This document shows, piece by piece, positions 4,124 through 48,729 of a stretch of 64,000 nucleotides of DNA (position 1 is its first letter; each line of letters starts with the position of its first letter). A program made the translations under genes and the position numbers. The DNA is from Escherichia coli (GTDB taxonomy: Bacteria > Pseudomonadota > Gammaproteobacteria > Enterobacterales > Enterobacteriaceae): assembly GCA_025544715.1 (NCBI GenBank), contig GCA_025544715.1_4109.3; one strand, written 5' to 3'. Under the pieces are notes generated by a model. The model worked only from the letters and a program-made list of their open reading frames with translations, ran no database searches and was not told the DNA's origin.

Positions 4124-4342
4124 TTATTTTGAATTATACAAGCAGTACAGGTATACCAATGGAGTAAAATGTTCGGAATCTATTATATATATTAACTGAG
4201 TAACATATATTCCATATAGATCTCGTGATTTATCTCTGTACATTAACAATGATTTATTTAAGTAAGGATCAACCCAGTACTTAATATCATTGTACTTCAA
4301 CGTGTTGTTACGGTAACCTGATAGTTTTGAATTTTTATTCAA
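4124..4342 (-). CDS. Hypothetical protein (72 aa)
   Basis: ORF in array. Confidence 0.35.
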   Translation of the reverse strand: MNKNSKLSGYRNNTLKYNDIKYWVDPYLNKSLLMYRDKSRDLYGIYVTQLIYIIDSEHFTPLVYLYCLYNSK

Positions 4343-6868: not shown

Positions 6869-7981
6869 TTAGAACATTTGTTTGATTGCTTCGTAACGAA
6901 GTTCACAAACAAAATCACGAATTTCTGACGTTTCAAGTTCACCATCTTTAACCATTTGCTGAATATCAGGTAATTCAACATCAGTATAACGATCATAAAC
7001 TTTAATAATTAGATCTTCAAGTTCTAAATCAATTTCTTTTCGCAAAATGAAGTATTCCAAAACTTTATAAAGGAATTCTTCACCTCCGTTATTTTTAATA
7101 TTCATATCCAATAAAATATTACCCATTTCAATTGGGGTCTTTTTACGGAATGTTTTGATATCATCACGGAAACGTTTGATATAATTACTAAATTTAACAT
7201 ACTTAACTGGAACTTTAATAGCACCGTTAAGTACTGAATCATTATTTACTTCTTCATTTTCTAGAAGAATAGACCACAGAAAATATGGTTTATATACATC
7301 AGTACAGTTATCTGAAATATAATCAATAAGGTCTAAATTCTTTTTGGTCAAAGATGTATTAAACACCTTTTCGTAATAACCAAATTTACTTAGCGTCTTA
7401 AGGAACTTTGAAGGCTTTTCTTCAGAAAATGCTTTTTCGAATTCCACAAAAACACGGTCAGGAACAAGATGATTTAGCTCACCACTATTGACCATTCCAA
7501 TAGCGAGTTCCTCAGTGCTTTCATGAATAGTAAAGTCTGAATAACGAGTAGCAAATCGAGCAAGACGTAACACGCGTAATGGATCTTCTTTAAAATGGTC
7601 AGAAACATGACGTAGTACCTTGTTCTTGATATCAGCTTTACCACCGTATGGATCGATGTGAATTTGTAGTACTGGATCATACGCAATTGCATTAATTGTA
7701 AGGTCACGGCGATACAAATCTTGTTCTAGTGTTACGCCTTTTGTATCCACTTCAAAGCCACCATATCCAGTACCAGTTTTACGCTCAGTACGGGCTAATG
7801 CGTGTTCATTACCTTCTGGACTTAGATATACTGGGAAATCCTTACCTACTTGCTTATAGCCAATACTTTGCAAGTACTTAAGATCAGATTCGGATGCACC
7901 AACAATGACATAATCTTTGTCTTTTGCACGAAGACCCATTAAACGGTCACGGACGTAACCGCCAACCAAATACTTTTTCAT
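6869..7981 (-). CDS. cca: tRNA nucleotidyltransferase (CCA-adding enzyme / poly(A) polymerase family)
   Basis: Head-domain motifs GGYVRDRLMG...DKDYV and RRDLTINA. Confidence 0.75.
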   Translation of the reverse strand: MKKYLVGGYVRDRLMGLRAKDKDYVIVGASESDLKYLQSIGYKQVGKDFPVYLSPEGNEHALARTERKTGTGYGGFEVDTKGVTLEQDLYRRDLTINAIAYDPVLQIHIDPYGGKADIKNKVLRHVSDHFKEDPLRVLRLARFATRYSDFTIHESTEELAIGMVNSGELNHLVPDRVFVEFEKAFSEEKPSKFLKTLSKFGYYEKVFNTSLTKKNLDLIDYISDNCTDVYKPYFLWSILLENEEVNNDSVLNGAIKVPVKYVKFSNYIKRFRDDIKTFRKKTPIEMGNILLDMNIKNNGGEEFLYKVLEYFILRKEIDLELEDLIIKVYDRYTDVELPDIQQMVKDGELETSEIRDFVCELRYEAIKQMF

Positions 7982-8116
7982 GTTATTCCCCCATCAACCA
8001 ATCACGTAGACGTTCCCAGAAGCCTTTTGGTTGGTATTCTGGGTATTCATATTCATCAGTGCCTTGCTCGGAAACACCCCAATCTTCTTCTAGCATAGCA
8101 ATCATAATGCCTCCAA

Positions 8117-8539
8117 TTAAATTAATCTGTCACGTAGACGGTCGTAATATTTTTTGTGTATAGCTAGTATACACTGATATGCAGAATAGTCAATACCAAA
8201 TGTATCATCAATGAACATGTACTGATCAAGTGTTTCGGGTCCATTATCATCAACTGGTAATGTCCCTTCTTTTTTTGATAGTGTGTGCCACATCAACTCA
8301 CTTTCAATATGGTGAGTTGCGTATGTCAATTCTATCTTACTTTTTCGTAGTAAAATTAACAATTCATCATTGTCGTCGAGTGCATTACGAAATTTAATAC
8401 GAACTGTACCCTGGAAATTATTAGTGTACATAACACGATGATGATTGTATGAAATCAAACCACGCCTTTCAGTACTGATTTCGTGTTCAGCAAAGTACTT
8501 TAACGTTTCATTAAATTTTGGAATTTTAGTAACGTCCAA
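8117..8539 (-). CDS. Hypothetical protein, tandem paralog A
   Basis: Shares YMFIDDTFGIDYSAYQ-like block with adjacent ORF 8526-8942. Confidence 0.5.
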   Translation of the reverse strand: MDVTKIPKFNETLKYFAEHEISTERRGLISYNHHRVMYTNNFQGTVRIKFRNALDDNDELLILLRKSKIELTYATHHIESELMWHTLSKKEGTLPVDDNGPETLDQYMFIDDTFGIDYSAYQCILAIHKKYYDRLRDRLI

Positions 8540-8942
8540 TCACATAATCCTCATAAAGTTCGTATACCCTCATTATACTCTGATATGTATCAAAGTCAAT
8601 ACCAAAGGTATCCTCAATGAACTGATATTGCAAAAACTCTTCCTCTGTGGCAGCAATAGGAAGAGTCCCGTTTCGTTGTTCTGGGGATTGAACATCCTCA
8701 ATATACATCAACACTATACCTTCATCCAGATTTATATCTATCATAAAAACATCTTCACTATAAAATATGTTATATGTACGGATGAAGAGATTTCCTGTTC
8801 TATCATAACTTGACACGTGTGTTTCATAATACATTTTATCTAAACTAAAGAACAAACCTGTACTATCTGGCTTTTTAGTATTTTTTAATTTAATTTCGAT
8901 AGCATCAATAATAGGTTTAATATCAAACTTTTTCATAGACAA
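8526..8942 (-). CDS. Hypothetical protein, tandem paralog B
   Basis: Shares YQFIEDTFGIDFDTYQ block with 8117-8539. Confidence 0.5.
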   Translation of the reverse strand: MSMKKFDIKPIIDAIEIKLKNTKKPDSTGLFFSLDKMYYETHVSSYDRTGNLFIRTYNIFYSEDVFMIDINLDEGIVLMYIEDVQSPEQRNGTLPIAATEEEFLQYQFIEDTFGIDFDTYQSIMRVYELYEDYVIGRY

Positions 8943-9118
8943 ATCACATACTTATTACTATGTGGGTCGTAACAATATGAATCATTTACCTTAATACCAG
9001 GCTTAAGTTCAATAGTTGTTCCTGTTTCAGTACTGGATTCCGCATCACAGTAAATCATCACACCAACTCCTGCGAGTAATGCTACGATACATACAATTAC
9101 ACCAATGGTATATTCCAT
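8933..9118 (-). CDS. Small membrane protein (61 aa)
   Basis: Hydrophobic N-terminal segment. Confidence 0.4.
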   Translation of the reverse strand: MEYTIGVIVCIVALLAGVGVMIYCDAESSTETGTTIELKPGIKVNDSYCYDPHSNKYVICL

Positions 9119-9131
9119 TTCAATTCCTCGG

Positions 9132-9527
9132 TTATAAAAAGTAATTATACATTTTATTGTACAATATAAAAAGATCTTTCACATTATCATAAGTAATATC
9201 AGATACATCATGAATTAATGATAACTGAAAAAATGAAGCTTCGTCTATTTCTGCTGGAATTATAACATCACCATCGTCTTCGTCCATTTTATTAGTGTAG
9301 TATTTTATGTGATCTACATTCAACTCAATAGAGAACGCAATGTTGGTTTTTGTATAATCTTCAATTAATCCAATATATTGAGATTTTTCATTAATAAAAA
9401 ATCCAATCCCAATACAACGGTTATCTGTATATGGATAGTACCATCTATTAATAACTAGGTGTTCAGGTAAGTCCATATCATGTGTTGATATTAGAGATTT
9501 TACAATTTCCATCCAGGAATAATTCAT
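9132..9527 (-). CDS. Hypothetical protein (131 aa)
   Basis: ORF in array. Confidence 0.45.
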   Translation of the reverse strand: MNYSWMEIVKSLISTHDMDLPEHLVINRWYYPYTDNRCIGIGFFINEKSQYIGLIEDYTKTNIAFSIELNVDHIKYYTNKMDEDDGDVIIPAEIDEASFFQLSLIHDVSDITYDNVKDLFILYNKMYNYFL

Positions 9528-9542
9528 AATTAAAACTCCATA

Positions 9543-9569
9543 AGAAAAGGGACAGAATTAATCTGTCCC
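9543..9569 (-). terminator. Rho-independent terminator after hpf
   Basis: Hairpin GGGACAGA-loop-TCTGTCCC then T-rich tract. Confidence 0.6.
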
Positions 9570-9580
9570 TTTAGTCTATA

Positions 9581-9913
9581 TTACTCTTCGTTTTCTGTCA
9601 AATCATCAAGAACTGGGTGTTCTGGATGGTTTCGGCGGTGTAATTTAATGCTTTTGTCTTTACTGAATACAGTTTCCATCTTATCAAAAGATTCAACAAT
9701 TGCTTTATACAAATCAGCATCATCAGCAGTGACTGATTTACTACCAGCAGTTAAAGTTACAGCATATTGAGTTTTATGCTCTTTCTTAACATGAACACCA
9801 ATGTCTAGTACTGAAGAAGTACGGTACTTATCCAGACTTTTTGCTTCATTGTAAATAGCATCTTGGATTGCTGGAGTGATATCAACGTTGCCTTGAATAT
9901 TTAGATTTAGCAT
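9581..9913 (-). CDS. hpf: Ribosome hibernation promoting factor (HPF/RaiA family)
   Basis: N-terminus MLNLNIQGNVDITPAIQDAI...KSLDKY parallels E. coli HPF MQLNITGNNVEITEALREFV...KLEQY from memory. Confidence 0.7.
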   Translation of the reverse strand: MLNLNIQGNVDITPAIQDAIYNEAKSLDKYRTSSVLDIGVHVKKEHKTQYAVTLTAGSKSVTADDADLYKAIVESFDKMETVFSKDKSIKLHRRNHPEHPVLDDLTENEE

Positions 9914-9929
9914 ATTTCACCTTCCTTTT

Positions 9930-10889
9930 TTAGAGTGAACTTAACAACAAATCTGCTCGGTTTGTAACTTGACGATACCATAAGGAATTCATGATTTCTT
10001 TTTTAAATTTCTTAGGGTTATCATTTTTTACGCTTTTCCAAAGCTTATTAAACGTAGCCAATTTATCGACACCCATTGTATAGGACATTTCAAAAAGAAT
10101 ACGTTGTTGTTCTTTGGTCAGATTTACTGCTTCTTTTTTCTGCATCAACAATAAAAAGTCATTATATGTTCTTTTCATATCTTGCATTAAAAGTTTATTG
10201 GCTTGAGCTTTGGTAATACCGTTTCTGTACTTAATCGCATCAGATTCTTTTCTACCCAAATAATGCCCATAACCTATTGTATAATTACCTTTCATGTCCT
10301 TGTAGGGATGAAATTTAGAATTGTGGAAAGGAACTCCGACTTTCCCACCAAGTAAACGGCGTTTGTTCTTGGACTGAAATTCAATTGAACCTTCAGCTTC
10401 TTTGATGTGATTGACAATTTCTGGATCATTATAATCAAACAGTACAGTCACATCTGGTAACAATACGTTCTTCAAATCCTCTTTTGTTGGGATAAAGATA
10501 CCCTGAGAAGTATGAAGAGTAGCATTTAAATTGATATTTTTCAACAAAATAACATACTCTTCAAGTTGTACATTTTTAGGTTTAAACTTTTTAGCAATAG
10601 AATAATAACTATCACCAGGTTGAACCGTATAATGCTTCTCGCCGCGTGGAACATCCTTTGATATTTCTACCTTTGGTAATTCCTGCTTTTGAATTTGCGT
10701 AACTTGTGGTTTTAAATTGTGTACCTGACTTTCGTCCGATGATGATACACGATCATTTTGAGAAAAACCATAAAATCCAATCGCAGCGACAAGTACTGTG
10801 CAAACTAGAACACCATAAGTAGTCTTAGTTTTCAGTGCTTTTTTCGCTTGTTTCAAAACGCCTCCTTTGTTGATTGTTAAGATGGGCAA
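9930..10889 (-). CDS. Membrane-anchored LysM plus T4-lysozyme-like (GH24-like) protein
   Basis: N-terminal TM segment, LysM-like HYTVQPGDSYYSIAKKF, C-terminal domain aligning to T4 lysozyme (YKDMKGNYTIGYGH); catalytic Glu position appears to be His. Confidence 0.65.
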   Translation of the reverse strand: MPILTINKGGVLKQAKKALKTKTTYGVLVCTVLVAAIGFYGFSQNDRVSSSDESQVHNLKPQVTQIQKQELPKVEISKDVPRGEKHYTVQPGDSYYSIAKKFKPKNVQLEEYVILLKNINLNATLHTSQGIFIPTKEDLKNVLLPDVTVLFDYNDPEIVNHIKEAEGSIEFQSKNKRRLLGGKVGVPFHNSKFHPYKDMKGNYTIGYGHYLGRKESDAIKYRNGITKAQANKLLMQDMKRTYNDFLLLMQKKEAVNLTKEQQRILFEMSYTMGVDKLATFNKLWKSVKNDNPKKFKKEIMNSLWYRQVTNRADLLLSSL

Positions 10890-11024
10890 TCACAAAGATG
10901 GCAAAGAGGCCATTTGCAAAAGCCTCATCGGACTTTCTACAGTACAAAAACGTTCTTTTCAAATGTTTAAGTAGTATAGCATATTTTTATTTTATTACAA
11001 GACATATTTACTGTAAAAACCACA

Positions 11025-11435
11025 TTAATCGTAGTAGGTTCTACCTACAGTTATGTGATATTTAAAGTACTTGGTTGGTAGTCCTAGTTCGTTTCTAATG
11101 TGTGTGATGAAATCATCTTCAAATTCAATGATAAAGAATGAACCTGGATTCTTTTTATCTTTTACTATCTCAATAGAAGGATTGAACTTTATCTTTACTT
11201 TCATTCCATCGTATTTTTTCCAGAACTCTTCATGTGGTGGTACTTCACCACGCACTATACTAACATGTGCTCCCCATTGAGGATCTTTAACATCAATATG
11301 TAAATCAGTTCTGATGAAGTACTGGTAGTATCTAACCAACTGTAATGGAAGTTGTAGTACTAACCAGAAGTCCTTCTTCTTTTTCATAGTGCCACGATCT
11401 GGATCATACACCAGAGTTCCTTCCATTTCAATCAT
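11025..11435 (-). CDS. 2H phosphoesterase superfamily protein (LigT/Acb1-like)
   Basis: Two H-x-[ST]-x motifs (HVSIV and HITVG) with spacing typical of 2H fold. Confidence 0.5.
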   Translation of the reverse strand: MIEMEGTLVYDPDRGTMKKKKDFWLVLQLPLQLVRYYQYFIRTDLHIDVKDPQWGAHVSIVRGEVPPHEEFWKKYDGMKVKIKFNPSIEIVKDKKNPGSFFIIEFEDDFITHIRNELGLPTKYFKYHITVGRTYYD

Positions 11436-11442
11436 ATGTTAC

Positions 11443-11646
11443 CTATAAAATTACATATATGTTTTTATTTTCAATACGAACATATGTTTCCAAAACATCT
11501 TTCGGAATTTTATTACTTGTTTTGAACCATGTAGTATTCTCTACTAAAACAAAAGTTTCACCTTCAGTTTCACCAAATGTACTTAGTGCATAAATGAAGT
11601 AATTGGGTGATGCACTACAATATATATCAGCATTAATTTCAATCAT
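11443..11646 (-). CDS. Hypothetical protein (67 aa)
   Basis: ORF in array. Confidence 0.35.
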   Translation of the reverse strand: MIEINADIYCSASPNYFIYALSTFGETEGETFVLVENTTWFKTSNKIPKDVLETYVRIENKNIYVIL

Positions 11647-11649
11647 ATG

Positions 11650-11781
11650 TTACACCACAATAAAGCTTAATACAACGAGTGTAATAAACACACCCACGAT
11701 GGCAGTCATTTCTGGGTTTGCATCATATGTATAGCGTATACATTTTAGAAAATCTTTACCAAATTTCTTTAGTCCATTCAT
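11650..11781 (-). CDS. Small tail-anchored membrane peptide (43 aa), not in ORF track
   Basis: Own translation MNGLKKFGKDFLKCIRYTYDANPEMTAIVGVFITLVVLSFIVV; AAGGA RBS upstream; abuts next gene start. Confidence 0.3.
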   Translation of the reverse strand: MNGLKKFGKDFLKCIRYTYDANPEMTAIVGVFITLVVLSFIVV

Positions 11782-11792
11782 ATATTTTCCTT

Positions 11793-12149
11793 TTATTTCT
11801 TGTGTAAAGGTTCATCACTTTCATAATAAATTGTATCATTATTTCGCTCTATAGTAAAGCTCTTTTGACACAACTCTTCAGCTAAACCCTTTGCATAGTT
11901 TAATACATCTCGGTTGAGATATACTTCTTCTTTTGGAAAGCGTGGGTACTGAATAATACGAGCACACATCCCACTTTCAAGACCACCCGTGTAGATGTAT
12001 TCACACGGAATCAATTGTACACAAAAACCAAGATTGAATGCAAACTTTCTTGTGTACTCTCTTGCTGTTTGAATATCACCAGCAATATGGATATTCCAGT
12101 ACTGTGTCTCCACTGTACCTTTATCGATGTATTTCATACTCATCTCCAA
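11793..12149 (-). CDS. Hypothetical protein (118 aa)
   Basis: ORF in array. Confidence 0.45.
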   Translation of the reverse strand: MEMSMKYIDKGTVETQYWNIHIAGDIQTAREYTRKFAFNLGFCVQLIPCEYIYTGGLESGMCARIIQYPRFPKEEVYLNRDVLNYAKGLAEELCQKSFTIERNNDTIYYESDEPLHKK

Positions 12150-12166
12150 TTATAGCACTAAAAATC

Positions 12167-12556
12167 TCACTTTCCCAACTCTTCTATGATTCTTTTTATT
12201 GAATCATGATTTTCCAGACATAAAGTACTGTAATTTCTGCCAGTTTTTTCATTGAGGTCGTCGATTTCAATCATAAGATATCCATATGTAATATCTTGAA
12301 CCCTACTTCGTTTTACCCTTGAGTACAGCTTGATTGGTACTGATACACGAGTATTCAAAAACAATTCAGATAAATCATAACGATACACCAGGTATTCATT
12401 CTTGTAACGCTTACGACTGTAAGATTCTAAACACTGCGGATAACGTCTATCAAAAATACTGGTCCTTAGCTGAAGATTCATCGGATCTAACTTATGTGAG
12501 TAATATTTTTTAATTATTTTCTCAAAACGCTTAATGTGACGTTTCTTCCATCTCAT
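12167..12556 (-). CDS. Hypothetical basic protein (129 aa)
   Basis: ORF in array. Confidence 0.45.
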   Translation of the reverse strand: MRWKKRHIKRFEKIIKKYYSHKLDPMNLQLRTSIFDRRYPQCLESYSRKRYKNEYLVYRYDLSELFLNTRVSVPIKLYSRVKRSRVQDITYGYLMIEIDDLNEKTGRNYSTLCLENHDSIKRIIEELGK

Positions 12557-13050
12557 GTTCTAACTCCTTTCAATAATACAATAGGAAAATACTGTGTATC
12601 TGTATCAGAAATACTATTACAGTACTCAATAATTTCTTGATGGAGTGTGTTTATATAAATGCTAGGATATGGAATTGGTGTTTGTATTAGTCCAGAACTA
12701 TAAACACAATCAGTTCTTTGACAATCAATATAGTGTGTTGTCGGTATACCTTTACCACGTTCCTCAACTACAATTGAGTACGTGTCAGCAATAAAAATGA
12801 ACGCATTGTTAATTGATACATATTGGAGGGAATACACATCATCATGAACTTCAATCAAAGGACCATCAAAATTCATCAATACCGAACGGCGATATCCTAA
12901 CACATCACTCATTGCATCGAACTGTTCCTGTGATGAAAGATAACAAAAACACGTATCACGACATACGTCAATAAAACGCTTAAATGTTTCTGTTTCTATA
13001 AGCATATAATTTTCCTTAAAAAAGACCCCACATAGTGAGGTCAAATACAT
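12553..13050 (-). CDS. Hypothetical protein (165 aa)
   Basis: ORF in array; ATGA-type overlap. Confidence 0.45.
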   Translation of the reverse strand: MYLTSLCGVFFKENYMLIETETFKRFIDVCRDTCFCYLSSQEQFDAMSDVLGYRRSVLMNFDGPLIEVHDDVYSLQYVSINNAFIFIADTYSIVVEERGKGIPTTHYIDCQRTDCVYSSGLIQTPIPYPSIYINTLHQEIIEYCNSISDTDTQYFPIVLLKGVRT

Positions 13051-13275
13051 TTAATCGTTATCATCATCCAATGCGTCACGGTAAACATAATAAACATGTG
13101 CACCTAGCAGAGCAATAAGTACAATAAAGACTAACCAGAATGGTACAAAATGCAGTACTAGAGAAAACGCCAGTACTGTAATAACCATTACAACTGAACT
13201 GAAAATAAGACTGACTGCTTTTTCAAATCCAGATAGTAAATTTTTAAAGATTTTTTTCATAAATGAATCAACCAT
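13051..13275 (-). CDS. Small membrane protein (74 aa)
   Basis: Two hydrophobic helices. Confidence 0.45.
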   Translation of the reverse strand: MVDSFMKKIFKNLLSGFEKAVSLIFSSVVMVITVLAFSLVLHFVPFWLVFIVLIALLGAHVYYVYRDALDDDND

Positions 13276-13618
13276 TTTTAATCCTCAAGAAAGTATGCTT
13301 ACATTTTAGTTTATTACCATAGAATGAAATAGGAACATTAAACATTTCAATCTTATCTTCTTTCAACAAACGTAGAATATCAGGATCGTTTTTTGTTTGA
13401 ATACAATGAAGACCATTAACCTGAATTTCTAAACCTTTCTTTAGATATTCATAAATTTTTTGACGACGCATCCCGCCATAACTATCATTATGCACCACAT
13501 CACGTAGTTCTTTATATTCTTGCTTCAATGCTCGGTCTACAAGTGTTCCATCTTTCTTCCTGATCTCTGCAATACATTTATATTGATTTGAACCTCTAAG
13601 AGCCATGCTGTACCTCAT
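13268..13618 (-). CDS. Hypothetical protein (116 aa)
   Basis: ORF in array. Confidence 0.45.
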   Translation of the reverse strand: MRYSMALRGSNQYKCIAEIRKKDGTLVDRALKQEYKELRDVVHNDSYGGMRRQKIYEYLKKGLEIQVNGLHCIQTKNDPDILRLLKEDKIEMFNVPISFYGNKLKCKHTFLRIKNG

Positions 13619-14075
13619 TAGGGTATTTTTTCATCAATTCGTGTAAACGCTGAATCTCTTGTTCTTTTTTTCTATCACTCTCGTATTTTCGAGAAAGTTT
13701 CTTTTTTGTATTTGCTTCTTCTAATCTAATATCAGTACAGAATTTGTCATTTTTTAAAAAATTCTTACGCAATGCATTGTAAACAGCATTGAAATCGTTT
13801 CCTAATTCTTTAGAAGTGTCAGTGTAATTATGAAAATATATGTTATTTGTCATATTTACATGTTCAATTACTGCACCATTATGAGTTACGATAAACATTA
13901 TATCGCCATACTGTTCATGTGGTTCTGTACGATACAGATATATATGTTTACGTAGATAATCTTTTAATTCATGTTCAATGCCACTTTGTTCATAACTTTG
14001 ATATACTAAAACCTCACCATCAGTTGAACTGTTGTCAGATTCATATGGTTCGCGGATAATTATAAGATTATACAT
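13596..14075 (-). CDS. Hypothetical protein (159 aa)
   Basis: ORF in array. Confidence 0.45.
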   Translation of the reverse strand: MYNLIIIREPYESDNSSTDGEVLVYQSYEQSGIEHELKDYLRKHIYLYRTEPHEQYGDIMFIVTHNGAVIEHVNMTNNIYFHNYTDTSKELGNDFNAVYNALRKNFLKNDKFCTDIRLEEANTKKKLSRKYESDRKKEQEIQRLHELMKKYPNEVQHGS

Positions 14076-14083
14076 ATTACTCC

Positions 14084-14365
14084 TTATACCGGAGATACGG
14101 TACTCAACATTAGTAAAGCTGTATTTTCATCAATTTCATGATATTTGTCACACACAAGAGTTTCCAACAAATCAGGATGATAATAATAATGTTCATAATC
14201 AGTATCATTAGGAATATGATGATATACAAATACAATATCAAACACATCATCATCATTTTCACTTTTGAAACGCTTTAATTCATCTACACTTTCAACAAAG
14301 CCATATTCTTCAAAAGCAGTTGTACCATCTGGTAGTTTCATCCATGCACTTGCAACAATTTTCAT
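14084..14365 (-). CDS. Hypothetical protein (93 aa)
   Basis: ORF in array. Confidence 0.4.
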   Translation of the reverse strand: MKIVASAWMKLPDGTTAFEEYGFVESVDELKRFKSENDDDVFDIVFVYHHIPNDTDYEHYYYHPDLLETLVCDKYHEIDENTALLMLSTVSPV

Positions 14366-14382
14366 AAATTTGTGAATCCTTA

Positions 14383-14967
14383 TTATTTTGTAATGTTTAG
14401 TTTAGAAACGAAGTATTCTTTGGCTTCTTCATATGTCATTGAAGTATACATAGGATTCCATTTATCGTCAATATCCATAAGTACTTTAACTTCCATTACA
14501 TCTTCTGGTGTATAGAATTGCCATGTATTGTGATCTGGCTCATAGTTAGGGTCCAGTACAAAAACCGTACCATCCTGACCATAAACTTCTCCATCCTCTA
14601 ATAGCTCACGGAAGAAATCTTCTCCAGTAGTTGGGTCTTCGTATGCATTATAAAAACGAAAAACAACATTCTCAACATCAGTTTGGGTAGTACCATCGTC
14701 TTCATCATATTCCACCAAACGGTCCTGATGAAATACTAGGTCAATAGCACCAATGCGAGGTTTATTATGTGGAGTTTTGATTTCTTGCTGGGAATTCAAA
14801 TCAATACGTTCAGTGCTGATGAATACTCCACTAGGGGTAATTTCAATACCAGACACATTTTCTGGTGAATAGTAAGCGTCACACATGTCATCAATGTGCA
14901 TGTGCTCATGATACACTTCCATTTCAGGATTCTGCATCAACAGTGCTGCTAAGTCTTTTGCTTTCAA
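14383..14967 (-). CDS. Hypothetical protein, paralog of 15337-15999
   Basis: Shared N-terminus (MKxxELAxLL..P) and TPSGVF / DPNTW blocks. Confidence 0.5.
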   Translation of the reverse strand: MKAKDLAALLMQNPEMEVYHEHMHIDDMCDAYYSPENVSGIEITPSGVFISTERIDLNSQQEIKTPHNKPRIGAIDLVFHQDRLVEYDEDDGTTQTDVENVVFRFYNAYEDPTTGEDFFRELLEDGEVYGQDGTVFVLDPNYEPDHNTWQFYTPEDVMEVKVLMDIDDKWNPMYTSMTYEEAKEYFVSKLNITK

Positions 14968-15356
14968 TCTTCAATCTCCATAGAATTATCATCATCATAA
15001 TCATCACTGGTGTACTTAGTTTTTACCTCAATACCATTCTCATGTAGGTATGTGATAAAACCATTACCATAAACGAATTGATTATAATATGTATTTTCTT
15101 CTACATGTGCATCATAATCATCTTCATAATATGTGGGTATTGTAACATCATGACCGACACTTTGCAAGTACTGGAACAATTCTTTCAGTACTACTTCGAT
15201 ATCACCTTCTTCTGTGCCATAACAGTAAGCAGGTTCACCATGAGTGAATTTGAAACCTTTACAGGAAACTGTATAAATATCACTCATTTGTATACCACAA
15301 TCATCACATTCATGTATAGAACAATGCTGGTGGAATTTAATCTTTTTGATTTGCAT
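14964..15356 (-). CDS. Hypothetical Cys/acidic-rich protein (130 aa)
   Basis: ORF in array. Confidence 0.45.
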   Translation of the reverse strand: MQIKKIKFHQHCSIHECDDCGIQMSDIYTVSCKGFKFTHGEPAYCYGTEEGDIEVVLKELFQYLQSVGHDVTIPTYYEDDYDAHVEENTYYNQFVYGNGFITYLHENGIEVKTKYTSDDYDDDNSMEIED

Positions 15357-15999
15357 TTAGAAATTCACCAATTTTGGTAGTTGATGCTTTAACATTGAAT
15401 TCAGAATCAGGAAAATCTTTAGAAAATGATTCATTTTGTTCTTGTGAAAGTTCTTTTTTCGGTGGAAATAACATTTTGGCTAAATTTTTACCACATTCAA
15501 TTGCTTCATCATATGACATATTTTCCCATGTTTCATGCCAAGTATTAGGATCATATTCTGTCAGTACTGAAATGAAATCAATATCATCAGATGTATAACA
15601 AACAGCATGTTGATTAGAGAATTGTGTTGATTGATTTTTACCTAATAAAACAATTGGCTTTTCATAAGGAATGTTAAATACCAACCCATATTCTAAGCTA
15701 AGAACAGTTTGAATATGTGAACCCTCCAATTTTGGAGTAATAGTACCATCCTTAAAAAAAATTTGGACGTGACCCAAGAGTGGTGTATGGTATGGAGTAA
15801 GTACATTTTCATAATCTAATGTGGTTTTTACTGTGGTGAAAATACCAGATGGTGTAACCATTAATCTATTATCAAAATTCTGATAATGCAAGTCACTCTC
15901 TGCATCATAATGAAAAATGTCTAGATTCGGTTGAGACAGTAGTAATTTTGCTAATTCATGCGATTTCATATTATTTCTCCAAAAGAAAAGGAGAGTCAT
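15337..15999 (-). CDS. Hypothetical protein, paralog of 14383-14967
   Basis: See 14383-14967. Confidence 0.5.
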   Translation of the reverse strand: MTLLFFWRNNMKSHELAKLLLSQPNLDIFHYDAESDLHYQNFDNRLMVTPSGIFTTVKTTLDYENVLTPYHTPLLGHVQIFFKDGTITPKLEGSHIQTVLSLEYGLVFNIPYEKPIVLLGKNQSTQFSNQHAVCYTSDDIDFISVLTEYDPNTWHETWENMSYDEAIECGKNLAKMLFPPKKELSQEQNESFSKDFPDSEFNVKASTTKIGEFLNANQKD

Positions 16000-16010
16000 A
16001 GCGACTCTCC
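15981..16010 (-). terminator. Rho-independent terminator
   Basis: Hairpin GGAGAGTC-loop-GACTCTCC then TTTTCTTTT. Confidence 0.6.
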
Positions 16011-16017
16011 ATATAGT

Positions 16018-16458
16018 TTATTGTAAAACTTTAAGTTTGTAAAGTGTTCCTTCAACAAAACTCATAATATCTTCTAATGTGTTTACACTGCCGTAATCAC
16101 CCGATTCTTCAAGCATATCATGAATTGCTCTGCATTGCTCAACATATTCTTCAAGAATTGGTACACAATCTTCAATTGGTGTAAAACGATAACTATTACC
16201 AGTCCCAACTTGTAAAGCACCACGATTATTCATGATACCTTCAACAAATGCGTCTACATATTCTGGTAATTCTTTATATAGTTCATCTAATTGTAAATGC
16301 TTTGTATAAAAATGACATTGTAAGTGCCAGTTATGTGCAGCAGAACTTAAAAACAAACTATTTTCAATAAAAGTTAATAGTACTTCATCATATGAATTAT
16401 CTTCTTCAGTACTTCCGATAAAGTCCATTACGTGTCGTAAATCATTAATATCTTCCAT
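16018..16458 (-). CDS. Hypothetical protein (146 aa); possibly ferritin/Dps-like helical
   Basis: ORF in array; His/Glu-rich helical pattern, weak. Confidence 0.4.
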   Translation of the reverse strand: MEDINDLRHVMDFIGSTEEDNSYDEVLLTFIENSLFLSSAAHNWHLQCHFYTKHLQLDELYKELPEYVDAFVEGIMNNRGALQVGTGNSYRFTPIEDCVPILEEYVEQCRAIHDMLEESGDYGSVNTLEDIMSFVEGTLYKLKVLQ

Positions 16459-25386: not shown

Positions 25387-25896
25387 TTAACCACCATACT
25401 TTGACTTGTATGTTTCAAGTGATAAAGATATACGATTTTGCTTTTTAATTCTTTCATCAATATCCTTTGAATTCTTCACACTTCGGTATACGTCAGCTAA
25501 TAAATTATAATCTTCTTTATTTGAGCTATGCTGTGTCCAACCTATGTCTGTTTTAATACGAACACTTGCTTTATTTGACCAGTAAAAGAAACTGAAACCA
25601 TTTGACCCATCAAAAATATCAAAAGTATCTACCCAATCACCATAAGGAAAACTCGTCGGGACTGACTCGTGGTCGATTGTGATATCCGATAAATTGTTTG
25701 AACAGTACTTCGCAAAGTGATAAACAATTGGATCACATTTAGATAATTCATATTTGTATTCAATGATAGTTTTTCTATTAGCATCATTGATAGCATATTC
25801 TTTCATCAATGGGCTTTTTTTGATGATAAGAGTCCACAGAAACGATTCTAATCCGGTTTCATCAACTTTTTGTTTCTTTTTGAAAAATGAAATCAT
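25387..25896 (-). CDS. Hypothetical protein, member 1 of tandem triplicated family
   Basis: Shared block DxxRKxIIEYKYxLSK with the next two ORFs. Confidence 0.5.
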   Translation of the reverse strand: MISFFKKKQKVDETGLESFLWTLIIKKSPLMKEYAINDANRKTIIEYKYELSKCDPIVYHFAKYCSNNLSDITIDHESVPTSFPYGDWVDTFDIFDGSNGFSFFYWSNKASVRIKTDIGWTQHSSNKEDYNLLADVYRSVKNSKDIDERIKKQNRISLSLETYKSKYGG

Positions 25897-26414
25897 TTAT
25901 ATAAACCCTTAATTTTCTGTCTATTATGTATATCATTTTGCTGGATTTTCAATTTAGTAAGGTTGTTTCTTACACCTTCAACTCCACGCATTATTTGTAA
26001 CATAATTAGTGATTCGTCATATGTTAGTACATTGCTATTATTATCGATATATACTTTCACTCCACTTTCAAGATAATCATTTTCTTTGGAGTTAAAGTTT
26101 CTAATAGCAAACTTAACTTTATTTGTTGTATCACTGAATACATATCGTTCCGCACCGTAGAATGTTTTTCCACGAAATAAACCGCCGTCTTCCCACTTCC
26201 AACGGCTAGATTCATAATCATTAACGTAATCAAGGATTAAAGAAAGTAAAGGATGTTTACTTAATTTATATTTTGCTTCTAACAGGATACGTCTATCATT
26301 ATCTGTGGTGATAATATCCTTTAGTGAGTAGCTTTTAGATATAATTTTAAAGATAATTTCATGCCAAATTAATGTACTGTTTTGTTTTCCAACTGATCCA
26401 AAAAACATATCCAT
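25893..26414 (-). CDS. Hypothetical protein, member 2 of tandem triplicated family
   Basis: DNDRRILLEAKYKLSK and SSRW blocks. Confidence 0.5.
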   Translation of the reverse strand: MDMFFGSVGKQNSTLIWHEIIFKIISKSYSLKDIITTDNDRRILLEAKYKLSKHPLLSLILDYVNDYESSRWKWEDGGLFRGKTFYGAERYVFSDTTNKVKFAIRNFNSKENDYLESGVKVYIDNNSNVLTYDESLIMLQIMRGVEGVRNNLTKLKIQQNDIHNRQKIKGLYK

Positions 26415-26420
26415 TCCTCA

Positions 26421-26987
26421 TTAGTATAAATCAGTAATGTCTTTGTATGCATTAATCTGTTTTTGTTGTAATGAAAGTTCATTGAGTTTAGTTACCATCT
26501 TATCTACACCAACACGTGTATAGAAAATAATTAATGAATCTAAATTGCCTAGAGTAATTCTTGAACTGTAAGTTGAAAGTTTTCTTGCATAAACATAAAT
26601 TTCTTCTTCACTTGGTAAACGTTTCTCAATCAGCAAGTTTTCCACACCATTCGGCTCATAATCAATCTCGAACTCTACGCCTATCACTGTGTCTTGAATG
26701 CGATCCGTATATGAACCACCGTAAAAATACTCTCTTGGTTTGGATCTCCAACGAGAACTAAATGGGTCTGTTGCGTATTCTTTTACAAATTTGTAAAAGG
26801 ACATTTTACTGAGCATATACTTCATCTCAATTAGTGCTTTGCGGTCATCATCAGTTTTAAACTCTGCTTTGAGCGATGGACTTTTACACAGTAACTTAAC
26901 TAAATTGTTGTACATCTTTAATGTACGTTGTTCTTTCATTTCTTTGATTTTGTGACGTTTTGGTGGTGGTAATAAAGATTTGACCAT
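26421..26987 (-). CDS. Hypothetical protein, member 3 of tandem triplicated family
   Basis: DDDRKALIEMKYMLSK and SSRW blocks. Confidence 0.5.
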   Translation of the reverse strand: MVKSLLPPPKRHKIKEMKEQRTLKMYNNLVKLLCKSPSLKAEFKTDDDRKALIEMKYMLSKMSFYKFVKEYATDPFSSRWRSKPREYFYGGSYTDRIQDTVIGVEFEIDYEPNGVENLLIEKRLPSEEEIYVYARKLSTYSSRITLGNLDSLIIFYTRVGVDKMVTKLNELSLQQKQINAYKDITDLY

Positions 26988-27054: not shown

Positions 27055-29784
27055 TTATTTCCAACGTGTACCTGGACCTGATGGTACACCAGTACTGGCA
27101 GGTATCGCTGAACCACGTTTCGTTGTACTTGGGCGATATGTCAAAAAACGAGTCACTTTTTCAGTATCAATCGAAGTAATTCCTGAAGTTCCAGTAACTA
27201 TCTTACCAATGTAAGTGCTAGTTAAAGATTCATCAATAGTTTCAGTACTAATAACATATGACGCTTTCTTAGTATTCCTGTTCATTTGTATATACAAATA
27301 GAACGTAGTATTAGCTGGATTACTTTTTACCGTACTTAAATCTACACTTTGTATAGGTAGTCTGTCGAAAATTCCACCTAAAAACACCGGAACTTCACGT
27401 GTAAAGTACACTGAGAATCCTTGTGCAACGTCTTGTGATACTACCACAATCTTTTCTTTAACGCTACCATTTCCGCTAATTAAACCATCCATTTCAGCAG
27501 ATGTTGTACCAAAAACGCTGAATACAGATTTGGTTTGATAGTCAGAATCTTGAAAATTGTAATATCCAAAACCAACACCAGGAATAACACCATGTTGATA
27601 TGCTGCACCGAGTTGGATGTAACTAGATGACAAAAAACGATTTGATGTTATGACACCATCTACCGTTTTAGCTATCATCATCTTAAATTGTGCATTACCT
27701 GGTTGTGAAAATTGATGAACTGCATCAACACCAATGTAACCGAATCCTGAATATTTAGCAACTGTTAGACCAGTACAACGTTTCATATATGCTTCAGTAA
27801 TAATTCCTGTAACAGAACTAAGTGTCTCATATCTAGTACTTACCAATGAAGCTGAAGTTATGTTAGTTCCAGATAATACAACATCAACTTCGGCATAAAT
27901 TGCATAACCTTGGTTATTGTTAAGATTATATGCTGAAACTACTGCAATGGATTTAGAAAAAGTATTATCAGGTACATAATATAATACAATTTGTCCAGAT
28001 AGTGTACCAACAATGCCAGAGTTTCCTAGATTAGCAAAAATATCTTGTTTTAATGATTCTAATACCGTTGGTTCTATTGTATATGTTTCATCAAATTCTA
28101 AAGTATCTGGGTTTAATAATCCACCACTTGTTTTATATACACCTTCAATGAATGATGTTCCATAGCATCTAACACTACCATCGGTATCAACAAGAGAAAT
28201 CATAGCAGTGTATGTAAAATCATCACCTATTTGTTTACGATTAGATTGTGGTGCAAAACCATTTAATGTAGTATTATTTTGAACTGAGTTATATTGATAT
28301 GTTGGTTGTGAGCCTATTTCAGAAAAAACAGTATTATTATAATTATATGTTACATCATCATACGTACCAGAACATGCTAATAATATTTTTCTATTATCGA
28401 TGAAACGTACACCTAATAGGTTTGCACCAACAGCACTACCAAAAACTGGTAAAACGTTTGCATTTATAACGTTACTTGCGGATCTAGTACTAGCAACCCA
28501 TGAATCAAACGGTGTGCCACTAACCTTATATCGTTGTAGACCATAAAATTCAGTTGAACTCCATCTAAATTTAGATGCAAATACTAAACCATCTTTGGTT
28601 TGACATAAACCACCTGCGTTTCCTAATACACCAGCAGCAGTTGTCCCAGTGAAGTTGACCATATCGATTTCAAATGGGTTAGAAACTTGAAATCCATTAT
28701 TATATGAAACTGTAGCAGGAGCACGAGCAGAACCATCTAGTGACATAGATTTTGAGTTTATATTATAAACAAAACTGATACCAGTACCATACACTGTTGA
28801 AATATATAAAGGTGTAACCATTCTATGTGTTGGGTATAAAGTTACACGTATTTTGGATAAATCAGTACTAACGTTTGCTTGTATATTAAAGTCTGTATAA
28901 TCCGAAAATTCTACACGTGAGACTGGTGATGTAACTTCGAATAATGAATCCGAGCTAGTACCAACACTATATAATCTATCAAACACTCTTATGTTATTAG
29001 ATGCAGAATAACTTGTATTTCTAACAGTTTGCCCTGATAATCCAGTAACTTTTGTTAATGATGCCATTGAGCTTGCTTTCACATCACTTAGCTCTACTGT
29101 ATAAATTGAAAGTGCTAATCCTAAATTAGAAACACTTTTATCTTTACACCAAATATATACTTTTGTTCCAACAATATGAGTATATATAGGCATATCATTA
29201 CCAAAAGAAGTACTTGGTACTTTAGCATGAATATGTGATACTTCGTTGAATGTACCATTAGTTATAGTAAAAATATAATTATCTTCTGTACTTAAACATC
29301 CAAGCATTTCATAACCATTAGAGCCAATAAAATACTTAATATTCTCTGTACTACTCATAATTGAAGGTTTATACATTGAATTGGTTGAAATAACACTTTC
29401 TTGTGAAATCATGGTTATATTTCTGATTTCTCGTATAAATGAATAATAAAAACCTTTAGTACTGCCATTCGTCCCACTACGTAGAACAACAGCAGTACCA
29501 TCATCTTCAATAATAGTCGGTTGAACAACTTGATCACTTGACATAGGTGTAGCACCTTCATACGACCCACTTACGTTTAATGGTAAGTAATCCATTTCTC
29601 CTACACGTGATATAGGCAACATATCTAAAATACTTTGAACTTCAGAACGCTTGTATATTGGATATTGAACAATTCCAGTATTTGCATTCGGTGAGGTTCC
29701 ATTGAAAGTACGCATAGCGTACCTTCCTCCAATTGCTAAGTTCCCAAGGATCTCGGCACTTCCTATAATTCGTTTTGATGACAT
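27055..29784 (-). CDS. Tail-fibre-like large protein (909 aa from ATG 29784), paralog of 30400-33096
   Basis: Start MSSKRIIG parallels paralog MSKKIYGG; track start 29874 would overlap upstream gene; shared C-terminal module incl. KSNPANTTFY. Confidence 0.5.
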   Translation of the reverse strand: MSSKRIIGSAEILGNLAIGGRYAMRTFNGTSPNANTGIVQYPIYKRSEVQSILDMLPISRVGEMDYLPLNVSGSYEGATPMSSDQVVQPTIIEDDGTAVVLRSGTNGSTKGFYYSFIREIRNITMISQESVISTNSMYKPSIMSSTENIKYFIGSNGYEMLGCLSTEDNYIFTITNGTFNEVSHIHAKVPSTSFGNDMPIYTHIVGTKVYIWCKDKSVSNLGLALSIYTVELSDVKASSMASLTKVTGLSGQTVRNTSYSASNNIRVFDRLYSVGTSSDSLFEVTSPVSRVEFSDYTDFNIQANVSTDLSKIRVTLYPTHRMVTPLYISTVYGTGISFVYNINSKSMSLDGSARAPATVSYNNGFQVSNPFEIDMVNFTGTTAAGVLGNAGGLCQTKDGLVFASKFRWSSTEFYGLQRYKVSGTPFDSWVASTRSASNVINANVLPVFGSAVGANLLGVRFIDNRKILLACSGTYDDVTYNYNNTVFSEIGSQPTYQYNSVQNNTTLNGFAPQSNRKQIGDDFTYTAMISLVDTDGSVRCYGTSFIEGVYKTSGGLLNPDTLEFDETYTIEPTVLESLKQDIFANLGNSGIVGTLSGQIVLYYVPDNTFSKSIAVVSAYNLNNNQGYAIYAEVDVVLSGTNITSASLVSTRYETLSSVTGIITEAYMKRCTGLTVAKYSGFGYIGVDAVHQFSQPGNAQFKMMIAKTVDGVITSNRFLSSSYIQLGAAYQHGVIPGVGFGYYNFQDSDYQTKSVFSVFGTTSAEMDGLISGNGSVKEKIVVVSQDVAQGFSVYFTREVPVFLGGIFDRLPIQSVDLSTVKSNPANTTFYLYIQMNRNTKKASYVISTETIDESLTSTYIGKIVTGTSGITSIDTEKVTRFLTYRPSTTKRGSAIPASTGVPSGPGTRWK

Positions 29785-29800
29785 CTTTCTTTTCCTTAAT

Positions 29801-30388
29801 TTACCAACCAATTGTACCAGTTTCTGATGGTTTCCCAGTACTGACTGGGAATGAAGAACCTTTTTGTGTAACACTAGGTCTATATGTACTAAATCTGGAT
29901 ACTTTATTAATGTTTATATTTGTAATGCCACTTGTACCAACGGTAAGAGTTCCAATAAACATTATAATTTCAGATTCTTGTATTTGTGTTGGTGATACTT
30001 TATATATTGGTTCACCGAGAACTAACGTTGCATATACATATTGTGTTTGTGTCCCAGATGAAACTGTTGAAGCAAAAATAGAAACTGCTGGAAATTTATA
30101 AAGATAACCACCAATAAATGATGGTATTTCTCTATTAAATGTAAGACTATAACCAGACGAAGTAATATTTAGACTTGCATCATCATACAATTCACCGTAT
30201 TGTGTGAGTGGTAATCCATTTACAATAAAATTAACTTCATCTTTAGTAATAGAGGGGAATGTACATTCCCCATTTGAATTTGTTGGGTAATAAGTCATAT
30301 TATTACCTAATACACCAAGTCCAGTACTTTTACCCTGTACTGTAACTTGTTGCATTGCCTTAAGGTCTGCTCTTATTTTATATGCCAT
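29801..30388 (-). CDS. Short fibre-like protein (195 aa) carrying the shared C-terminal module
   Basis: C-terminus SSFPVSTGKPSETGTIGW parallels large paralogs. Confidence 0.5.
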   Translation of the reverse strand: MAYKIRADLKAMQQVTVQGKSTGLGVLGNNMTYYPTNSNGECTFPSITKDEVNFIVNGLPLTQYGELYDDASLNITSSGYSLTFNREIPSFIGGYLYKFPAVSIFASTVSSGTQTQYVYATLVLGEPIYKVSPTQIQESEIIMFIGTLTVGTSGITNININKVSRFSTYRPSVTQKGSSFPVSTGKPSETGTIGW

Positions 30389-30399
30389 TATGTAATCCT

Positions 30400-36808: not shown

Positions 36809-37030
36809 CTACTTTTTATTTGGGTTTGGTATGCAGTACACAAATACTAAATGATTAAAATGTTCTGTATTCGCATACTTTGCTAAGTCGGTTATGATGA
36901 AGTTTGTATCTTTAAATCTGCCATCATTGAATGTTGTGATTTGAAAACGTAGTTCAGGTGCAAAAATATAATAATAGAATATATCATTTACACACCCAAC
37001 AGTATGTTTAGCATATCTTTCAATTTTCAT
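36809..37030 (-). CDS. Hypothetical protein (73 aa)
   Basis: ORF in array. Confidence 0.35.
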   Translation of the reverse strand: MKIERYAKHTVGCVNDIFYYYIFAPELRFQITTFNDGRFKDTNFIITDLAKYANTEHFNHLVFVYCIPNPNKK

Positions 37031-46263: not shown

Positions 46264-46409
46264 ATATAGTACTTAAACACTTAAGTCAAACTTTTTCTGT
46301 ACTTAACTCAAATTTCCCTCATCAGATAATCCCCTTAGTACAATCACTGTGAAGATTCTATCACAAACCCATACCAAATGTAAAGCTTTTTTTATAAGGA
46401 GTGCCCTTC

Positions 46410-48335: not shown

Positions 48336-48351
48336 TAAGAGGAAATAAAAT

Positions 48352-48729
48352 ATGAAAGCTATAGCAGCACAAGGTAAATTACCATTCAATATCGGCGGCT
48401 TTTGTGTAACCGCAGCTAATATAAACGGTGAATTGAAATATAACTTGAACATCTTTAATCAACGTTCTAGTTGTGTTTACGATCTTATCGACACTGATTT
48501 TAATGTTTATCGTTTTGTAACTATAACAAGTTTTGATAAAGATAAAATCAGATTAGACGCATCTAAAACTGCACTAGAGATTGCACCAACTTTAGCAAAA
48601 AATACTTTTTGTATTAAGATTGATGATAGTGCATTTGCCGAATCATTCCAGTTTCATAAAATTAAATTGAGTACTGGAGAAATGAAATATCACCCTTGGG
48701 ATTTGTATTATTGTAACATCCCTGGTTAA
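48352..48729 (+). CDS. Plus-strand protein (125 aa), paralog of N-terminal domain of 46410-48335
   Basis: AAGAGGA RBS; shared blocks PFxIGG..., RSSxxYDL, YRFxxI. Confidence 0.55.
   Translation: MKAIAAQGKLPFNIGGFCVTAANINGELKYNLNIFNQRSSCVYDLIDTDFNVYRFVTITSFDKDKIRLDASKTALEIAPTLAKNTFCIKIDDSAFAESFQFHKIKLSTGEMKYHPWDLYYCNIPG

Follow-up and report, generated by a model that had tools for sequence, protein, structure and literature searches.

Diverged paralogue pairs from two orphan gene families, probably of ancient origin, in a 121Q-type jumbo coliphage genome

About 10% of the gene products of phage RaK2 are reported to belong to paralogous families (PMC3622015), and 22 paralogous ORFs are reported for the related phage CBB, in which RpoD-like promoters are concentrated in blocks of short hypothetical genes (PMC5259590). 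The paralogues in both phages are small hypothetical proteins, often encoded in tandem, which are closest to each other and not to anything outside the phage group, and the genes studied here resemble them in these respects. In the passages of these papers that deal with paralogy, the phenomenon is treated in general terms, the duplications are left undated and the two families described below do not appear (PMC3622015, PMC5259590). The stretch of DNA that we analysed, 64,000 nucleotides and hereafter the window, comes from a 121Q-type jumbo coliphage (Asteriusvirus), with 97% DNA identity to phage 121Q over 8 kb and matching annotation. The proteins of its two gene pairs, A and B, are 94-100% identical to 121Q gp536/gp537 and gp519/gp521, respectively; the counterparts in this close relative are the same genes and differ in nothing of substance. 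The proteins are annotated as hypothetical and their families are uncharacterised. For an RaK2/121Q-type giant phage genome the region is ordinary, and it is no hot-spot of recent duplication. In all probability, each pair arose by an ancient duplication and has long since diverged, within one of two orphan families that occur only in RaK2-like jumbo myoviruses (Table 1).

Table 1. Positions of the features discussed, numbered from the first nucleotide of the window
Feature	Position	Strand	Length or sequence	121Q orthologue	PHROG match	Remarks
Downstream A copy	8117-8539	-	140 aa	gp537	phrog_20693, E=5e-56, residues 1-139	
Upstream A copy	8526-8936	-	136 aa, from ATG 8936 (probable start)	gp536	phrog_20693, E=2e-65, residues 3-138	
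49-nt block, downstream A copy	8168-8216	-	49 nt			Counterpart of 8574-8622
49-nt block, upstream A copy	8574-8622	-	49 nt			Encodes C-terminal motif; 86% identical to 8168-8216; sole DNA similarity of pair A
Putative sigma-70-like promoter, first site	8572-8599	-	TTGACT-N16-TATAAT, 11/12			Within coding block of upstream A copy
Putative sigma-70-like promoter, second site	8166-8193	-	TTGACT-N16-TATACT, 10/12			Within downstream A copy
Mosaic patch	8200-9120	-				Strongly diverged from PBECO4-type phages; flanks ~99% identical
B1	14383-14967	-	194 aa	gp521	phrog_18200, E=1e-91, residues 1-194	
Gene X	14964-15356	-	130 aa		phrog_9509	Acidic, 5 Cys; between B1 and B2, unrelated to them
B2	15337-15969	-	210 aa, from ATG 15969 (probable start)	gp519	phrog_18200, E=1e-69, residues 11-180	
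Terminator-like hairpin and T-run	15990-16010	-				Between Dps-like gene and B2
Dps-like gene	16018-16458	-				Counterpart in contigs L014/L015 has Pfam DUF5856

The first-pass annotation had proposed that four ORFs form two tandem or near-tandem paralogue pairs. All four are present on the minus strand, and both pairs are true paralogues by formal alignment (E=1e-11 for A, E=3e-9 for B), with one PHROG per pair. The triplet at 25.4-27.0 kb and the plus-strand pair, also put forward as duplications, are likewise real. Two of the mechanically called ORFs are probably slightly too long, as judged from the 121Q annotation and the family alignments: the upstream A copy (8526-8942, 138 aa) would start at 8936, its ATG overlapping the upstream stop as ATGA, and B2 (15337-15999, 220 aa) at 15969 (MKSHELAKLL). 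The downstream A copy starts with TTG in the window and with ATG in PBECO4. The C-terminal block said to be shared by pair A was recovered by BLASTP as 44% identity across 50 residues, with the expected motif in both copies (YMFIDDTFGIDYSAYQ vs YQFIEDTFGIDFDTYQ); in an all-versus-all search of the 329 ORFs of the window the pair scored E=3e-9. The copies of pair B, which both match along their full length one PHROG without known function, are 24% identical over 188 aa. Of the internal blocks ascribed to this pair, TPSGVF/TPSGIF is a truly homologous family motif (T44 and G47 nearly invariant, P45 invariant, S46 mostly S or D), whereas DPNTW had been partly mis-registered: in B2 it aligns to DIDDKW of B1, with the invariant W170, and not to the B1 stretch DPNYEPDHNTW. 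No internal repeat was found in family B.

Both families are small. Family A, of ~140 aa, comprises 22 proteins, and family B, of ~180-215 aa, forms 34 clusters in an exhaustive search of 1.84 billion representatives, about 28 of them genuine single-domain proteins. Long matches in several stretches (P0054, P0059, P0061 and P0063) were rejected as unrelated repeat proteins that share only a short TPSG-like word. We also rejected ORF 9132-9527 as a third member of family A; it had a BLASTP E of 0.006 and weak phrog_17453 matches in common with the family, but its hhalign probability was 3.6% and a profile scan was empty. The same scan of the 156 window ORFs of at least 60 aa revealed no further hidden member of either family.

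The phylogenetic evidence indicates that these duplications are old. In neither family do the copies cluster together to the exclusion of the homologues of other phages. Each A copy groups with its own PBECO4 orthologue; both copies, already diverged, are found in 121Q, PBECO4, A4, EC.P1 and CMSTMSU and in all Asteriusvirus allele classes examined, and one syntenic copy (ORF030) is found in RaK2. The tandem duplication of family A predates the divergence of Asteriusvirus species, and the family is single-copy at the RaK2 locus. The tree of family B has two clades, of which that of B2 (100% neighbour-joining bootstrap) includes the window, PBECO4, a metagenome contig, Munch, Hallingskeid and EJP2. 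This duplication predates the separation of the sampled RaK2-like lineages, and both copies have been kept in a conserved neighbourhood with the Dps-like gene. Indeed, all RaK2-like phages examined have the Dps-like gene near family B, gene X precedes B1 in RaK2 also, and a divergent metagenomic contig repeats the gene order Dps-B2-(053)-X-B1-Y.

All copies of both pairs are intact and under purifying selection, with dN/dS at 0.25 and 0.31 in the two A copies, at 0.45 in B2 and at 0.74 in B1, the last value being based on very few substitutions. The mosaic patch takes in a 61-aa membrane ORF (8933-9118), all of the upstream A copy and, of the downstream one, the N-terminal two-thirds, with dS of 0.5-1.5 and dN/dS of 0.2-0.3; dS is saturated only here. 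Fast positive selection was considered for the 52% and 74% identity of the A orthologues and rejected, because low dN/dS with saturated dS is better explained by allele replacement through recombination. The patch with the upstream A copy may thus have been exchanged between phage lineages. In the Salmonella-infecting relative SD-15_S21 the family A pair is deleted and the promoter-bearing block, including the second sigma-70-like site, is retained, which suggests that at least one such phage can do without family A. The deletion could alternatively stem from assembly quality or laboratory passage. The genomes of SD-15_S21 and its sisters are 20-40 kb shorter than those of relatives, and several of their genes are fragmented.

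Moron-like cassettes and intragenic phage promoters are arrangements in which a gene carries its own promoter or that of the next gene. By analogy, both family A copies appear to end with a -35/-10 pair, at a distance of 33-61 nt from the gene that follows. At the first site the -10 hexamer ends 33 nt ahead of the start of the downstream A gene; the second lies 61 nt upstream of a 41-aa ORF (7983-8105), which precedes the gene for the CCA-adding enzyme (6869-7981). Both sites have near-consensus hexamers and a 16-nt spacer, inside the 16-18 nt range of RpoD-type promoters, lie on the coding strand upstream of a gene start, and are conserved. The hexamers are invariant in both A paralogues across five allele classes, with a variable spacer; they fall in conserved codons, and their conservation is not fully separable from that of the amino acids. 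The codons concerned are rare ones (Asp GAC, 19%; Ile ATA, 20%). Across the window, 13 coding-strand sites match at least 11 of the 12 positions, where 2.7±1.7 would be expected; the opposite strand has 1. Of these 13, nine are located 10-90 nt ahead of a gene start. The literature searched contained no transcriptome for Asteriusvirus. As in the cassettes, the putative promoter pair seems to be conserved from allele to allele and to survive when the remainder of the genes is deleted; unlike in the cassettes, its predicted place is within the codons for a conserved protein motif and not between genes. The family A C-terminal block would therefore be under a double constraint, as a helix-forming protein motif and as a sigma-70-type promoter firing into the next gene. 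Since the block would supply the following gene with its promoter, each A copy may be viewed as a cassette of a gene plus a promoter for the downstream gene, both of which would have been copied by the tandem duplication. Judging by promoter type and neighbourhood, the A and B genes are probably early or middle genes transcribed by host RNA polymerase.

Neither family has a match in Pfam, NCBIfam, PADLOC or the PDB sequences, and their PHROG annotation is uninformative. The AF2 model of the upstream A copy, with one helix, five antiparallel strands and two C-terminal helices, is of low confidence (pLDDT 57), and that of B1 is confident (pLDDT 87, pTM 0.74) without a significant fold match in the PDB. 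A viral structure library returned only family members and, for the N-terminal ~60 residues, a partial likeness to very small phage proteins that are themselves uncharacterised. The top Foldseek matches were not significant: the p32/gC1qR/MAM33 fold for the unreliable family A model (E=0.09, TM 0.24) and the Whirly-like fold of trypanosome MRP1/MRP2 for the family B model (E=0.027, TM 0.19-0.23). Roughly in common with these proteins, the models would have an acidic character and a sheet of antiparallel strands preceded by an N-terminal helix and followed by C-terminal helices. The superpositions have an rmsd of 17-20 Å, and neither family should be filed under the p32/MAM33 or Whirly/MRP folds. 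The virion mass spectrometry table for phAPEC6 lists the Dps-like gp306c and lacks gp289c, gp290c and gp302c, orthologues of the proteins studied here; similarly, LC-MS/MS notes for fENko-Kae01 mark the Dps-like protein and not the B homologues. We infer that the A and B proteins are non-structural accessory proteins. Their binding partners are probably macromolecules of host or phage, and the copies of each family may have divided or specialised the role. Two further readings are tentatively suggested: that 28 nt of the A block have a dual use, as the ...DxxxYxxI... motif and as a host-RNA-polymerase promoter, and that family B may have a new fold, its two ancient copies perhaps being functionally tied to the packaged Dps-like protein of RaK2-like jumbo phages.

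One alternative is that these families are anti-defence or host-takeover inhibitors, such as DNA mimics or inhibitors of nucleoid or defence proteins, which have been duplicated and swapped under an arms race. B1 is extremely acidic (net charge -28, pI 4.2), as to a lesser degree are B2 (net -14) and the upstream A copy (net -12, pI 4.4) though not the downstream one (net -3), and the neighbouring X, Y and Dps-like proteins are acidic too. Other features consistent with such a role are the location of the genes in a block of small genes with predicted host-type promoters, the failure to detect the proteins in virions, and the position of family A in an exchanged patch and its apparent dispensability in a phage with another host. 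However, neither family resembles a known anti-defence or defence family or a DNA-mimic fold in Pfam, NCBIfam, PADLOC or the PDB sequences and folds, dN/dS values of 0.25-0.45 give no sign of positive selection at this resolution, and B1, unlike typical arms-race genes, shows 97% conservation from the 121Q to the PBECO4 type. An anti-defence role is, hence, unlikely. Still less probable is a partnership of the B proteins with the packaged Dps-like protein, in which they might, for instance, chaperone or regulate its loading or its binding of DNA or iron. Such cooperation would account for the persistent linkage: B1, B2 and the Dps-like gene lie within about 3 kb in Asteriusvirus, RaK2, Munch/Kae01, Hallingskeid, EJP2 and the metagenomic relative, even where their relative order has changed, and the Dps-like protein is packaged in the virions of phAPEC6 and fENko-Kae01. 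Synteny is generally high among these phages, however, and the linkage may be inherited order; moreover, the terminator-like hairpin separates the Dps-like gene from B2, and the distant homologue on contig L013 has no Dps-like gene in 6 kb upstream or in the 2.1 kb that remain downstream.

It is very improbable that the likeness of pair A reflects a promoter-bearing DNA element, or a gene-conversion tract, shared by two otherwise unrelated genes. The limits of the BLASTP alignment, and a nucleotide similarity restricted to the block holding the promoter-like hexamers, are what such an element would leave. Against this, both proteins match phrog_20693, a PHROG without known function, over their full length, their profile-profile alignment extends over 130-140 columns with 100% probability, and the single RaK2 homologue aligns full-length to both. 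Gene conversion as a source of the 49-nt block was also rejected: the paralogues are 86% identical in the block in the window and ~71% in PBECO4, against 82-90% for orthologues, and as paralogue identity does not exceed orthologue identity there is no sign of concerted evolution. Finally, the claim that the region is unusually rich in recent tandem duplications, as an active hot-spot would be, is scarcely credible, for although the copies are adjacent or nearly so and several further paralogue sets share the same 64 kb, the copies are only 24-25% identical overall, DNA similarity is limited to one block in pair A and to chance-length matches in pair B, identities within the paralogue sets of the window are all 22-44%, the trees that refute this view show separate orthologues of each copy in other species or genera, and about 14-15 of the ~110 window genes (~13%) have a paralogue in the window, near the published RaK2 figure that we took as the baseline.

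In summary, the ancient origin of pairs A and B carries little weight for biology at large, and its main value is a corrected reading of the region. About 10% of the genes in jumbo phages of this group are old, diverged paralogues, of which these pairs, already in PHROGs, are typical. As the duplications can be dated relative to genera, they provide orthologue and paralogue labels for annotation. Family B, with a confident predicted structure and no known fold match, is a reasonable target for structural or functional work. A family A coding block that doubles as a conserved, predicted sigma-70-type promoter would be a clean and testable overlap of protein and regulatory constraint; if this dual-use reading is true, the gene duplication also duplicated a promoter, and a natural deletion of both proteins kept it. 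It would also serve as a warning that what looks like a conserved protein motif in a phage early region can in part be a DNA signal.

Both pairs are paralogous, as the first-pass annotation had proposed. The A copies share 44% identity across their last 50 residues (E=1e-11) and the B copies 24% across 188 residues (E=3e-9), and both similarities were still significant in an all-versus-all search of 329 window ORFs. The phrog_20693 profile gave a full-length match to both A copies (family A), as did phrog_18200 to both B copies (family B; B1 and B2). The motifs originally quoted are present, but the DPNTW of B2 pairs with DIDDKW of B1 (invariant Trp) and not with B1 DPNYEPDHNTW. The true starts of the upstream A copy and of B2 are likely to be 8936 and 15969. 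No additional members of either family were found within the window, and a third family A member at 9132-9527 was unsupported; no internal repeat was detected in family B. An 8-kb query spanning both pairs was 97.3% identical over its full length to Escherichia phage 121Q and matched about 30 further Asteriusvirus jumbo phages of ~350 kb each. In 121Q RefSeq, pair A is gp537 and gp536 and pair B is gp521 and gp519, all four named 'hypothetical protein', in a setting with genes for a Dps-like protein, a LysM lysozyme, an HPF/RaiA homologue and a CCA-adding tRNA nucleotidyltransferase. Essentially all window genes lie on the minus strand.

Neither duplication appears recent. DNA-level similarity in pair A is restricted to one 49-nt block (86%). 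RaK2 has a single family A homologue, ORF030, at the same position immediately upstream of the CCA-adding enzyme gene, and all of the Asteriusvirus allele classes examined have the two copies, which group separately with their respective orthologues; this distribution places the family A duplication before the Asteriusvirus species, and it may postdate the split from Alcyoneusvirus. The B paralogues are ~25% identical overall, with no meaningful nucleotide similarity. Iterative HMM searches of syntenic loci revealed two or three family B copies each in Munch, fENko-Kae01, Hallingskeid, EJP2 and a metagenomic relative, and one copy in the RaK2 locus examined. A neighbor-joining tree (300 bootstraps) groups the B2-type copies from the window, PBECO4, a metagenomic contig, Munch, Hallingskeid and EJP2 into a single clade (support 100%), and hence puts the family B duplication before the split of these phage lineages.

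The region had been described as unusually rich in recent duplications, a view which our comparisons do not bear out. All other paralogue sets in the window exhibit only 22-44% identity and are old. Of the ~110 genes, roughly 14-15 have a paralogue inside the window, a fraction near the 'nearly 10%' of gene products given for jumbo phages including RaK2 (PMC3622015); 22 paralogous ORFs are mentioned for CBB (PMC5259590). Both pairs are an ordinary trait of the RaK2-like jumbo phages, being orphan paralogues that are old and diverged and that PHROGs already include.

Coordinates of the genes, sites and paralogue sets discussed (window positions unless stated otherwise)
Feature	Coordinates	Strand	Description	Identity
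Family A, downstream copy	8117-8539	minus
Family A, upstream copy	8526-8942	minus
B1	14383-14967	minus
B2	15337-15999	minus
Sigma-70-like site	8599-8572	minus	TTGACT-N16-TATAAT; 33 nt before start of downstream A gene
Sigma-70-like site	8193-8166	minus	TTGACT-N16-TATACT; 61 nt before 41-aa ORF preceding CCA-enzyme gene
Near-consensus sigma-70 sites	-35 at, for example, 20256, 27038, 52162, 56447, 18175, 19191, 44580, 53875	minus
Paralogue set	25387-26987 (25387/25893/26421)		Tandem triplet, ~170-190-aa proteins	31-42%
Paralogue set	27055-33096 (27055/29801/30400)		Two ~900-aa tail-fibre-like proteins and 195-aa fragment-like ORF	27-43%
Paralogue set	46401-48729 (46401/48352)	plus	644-aa/125-aa pair	43%
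Paralogue set	4124-4342 vs 36809-37030		~72-aa ORF pair	29%
Dps-like gene	16018-16458	minus	Contigs L014/L015 counterpart with Pfam DUF5856
Gene X	14964-15356	minus	130 aa, acidic, 5 Cys; between B copies
Extra ORF	PBECO4 locus 8278-8631; equivalent window point ~15340-15356

The family A genes lie in a mosaic patch. Most genes of the block show 94-100% protein identity to PBECO4-type phages; identity is low for the upstream (52%) and downstream (74%) A copies, and is 74% for a 61-aa membrane ORF between the A copies and gene 9132. DNA alignment with PBECO4 delimits a divergent patch at ~8200-9120 with sharp edges, ~99% identical flanks and, inside it, a conserved island at the putative promoter block. 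With saturated dS in the patch (up to 1.5) and dN/dS of ~0.25, the sequences look like an old allele imported when phage lineages recombined, and they do not point to fast adaptive evolution. A natural deletion in Salmonella phage SD-15_S21 (locus 600-740, equivalent to window 8220-8936) has removed the whole upstream A copy and ~105 codons of the downstream copy, leaving in place the last ~33 codons of the latter, which contain the promoter-like block, and all of the downstream sequence. From this deletion, family A appears to be dispensable on the host of this phage, with the caveat that, compared with related phages, SD genomes are more fragmented and 20-40 kb shorter.

The 49-nt block common to the A copies (8574-8622 and 8168-8216), which belongs to their conserved C-terminal coding sequence, coincides with two of the region's best sigma-70-like matches. 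In the whole window, 13 sites on the coding strand and 1 on the opposite strand agree with the consensus at 11 or more of its 12 positions. First-order Markov simulations (n=200) gave an expectation of 2.7+/-1.7, and none reached 13; 9 of the 13 coding-strand sites precede a gene start by 10-90 nt. This strand bias and placement suggest that host RNA polymerase transcribes the gene block. In CBB, a related phage, RpoD-like promoters are described as clustered in blocks of short hypothetical genes (PMC5259590). The -35 and -10 hexamers are invariant in both A paralogues among 121Q-, A4-, PBECO4-, CMSTMSU- and EC.P1-type alleles, whereas the spacer and its encoded residues vary, and the hexamers demand minority codons (Asp-GAC, 19% usage; Ile-ATA, 20%). 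The first half of the A protein motif, QYxFIxD, is shared by RaK2, where the hexamers are missing, and so a constraint exists at the protein level too. On balance, we lean towards a block that is doubly constrained, each A copy carrying a predicted promoter for the next gene.

Several observations concern the neighboring genes. Gene X has the motif HECDDCG, which is possibly metal-binding, and two segments that match phrog_9509. It shows 100% identity to its PBECO4 counterpart and also precedes B1 in RaK2. An extra ORF of ~115-117 aa (~350 bp) lies between B2 and X in PBECO4-type phages, most other Asteriusviruses and metagenomic contig L014; it is absent from the window and 121Q, and had no family match. 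In phAPEC6, locus 7975-8622 holds an intact B2 ORF of 215 aa. The record lists no more than a 55-aa fragment of it (gp305c), which is an annotation gap and not gene loss. The HPF/RaiA ribosome-hibernation homologue (9581-9913) is more diverged from PBECO4 than its neighbors (83% aa identity, dS 0.55) and is followed by a hairpin at 9546-9572 with an 11-bp stem, terminator-like on both strands.

Searches against Pfam, NCBIfam, PADLOC and PDB sequences gave no match for family A or family B. Among 1.84 billion representative proteins, searched exhaustively with a profile, family B amounted to only 34 clusters, ~28 of them genuine, comprising single-domain proteins of 160-205 aa; the long matches were unrelated repeat proteins. 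For family A, a profile word-search gave 22 proteins, every one of 103-150 aa. The AlphaFold2 model of B1 is confident (pLDDT 87, pTM 0.74) and matched nothing significantly among PDB folds (best, MRP1/MRP2; E=0.027, TM ~0.2), family members being its sole full matches in a viral structure library. Residues 1-60 of family B (B1, 14788-14967) form an N-terminal helix-plus-hairpin module, MKxxELAxLLxxxPDxEV...TPSGxF, that resembles tiny uncharacterised phage proteins in this library (for example A0A7S5SK32: rmsd 2.7 A, 66 columns, Foldseek probability 1.00, but E=0.043), and the module may represent a small domain that is widespread in phages. For family A the model is poor (pLDDT 57), and the top fold matches, to the p32/gC1qR family, are insignificant.

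Net charge is -28 for B1 (very acidic), -14 for B2, -12 for the upstream A copy and near neutral for the downstream copy; an anti-defence or DNA-mimic role is kept as a rival explanation. A second rival is a functional link to the Dps-like protein, annotated elsewhere as a 'starvation-inducible transcriptional regulator', whose gene lies within ~3 kb of the family B genes in all of the RaK2-like phages examined, even though rearrangements have occurred. The Dps-like protein was detected in virions of phAPEC6 (gp306c, 66% coverage) and fENko-Kae01; the phAPEC6 virion proteome lacks orthologues of the A and B proteins, and no virion LC-MS/MS flag is attached to the family B homologues of fENko-Kae01. 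In comparison of the window with PBECO4, dN/dS ranges from 0.25 to 0.74, with very few substitutions behind the values for slowly evolving genes. We infer that the A and B proteins are non-structural accessory proteins whose copies specialised after old duplication. Their interest is modest, and would lie in a family B fold that is confidently predicted yet unmatched and in the candidate dual-use coding/promoter block of family A.
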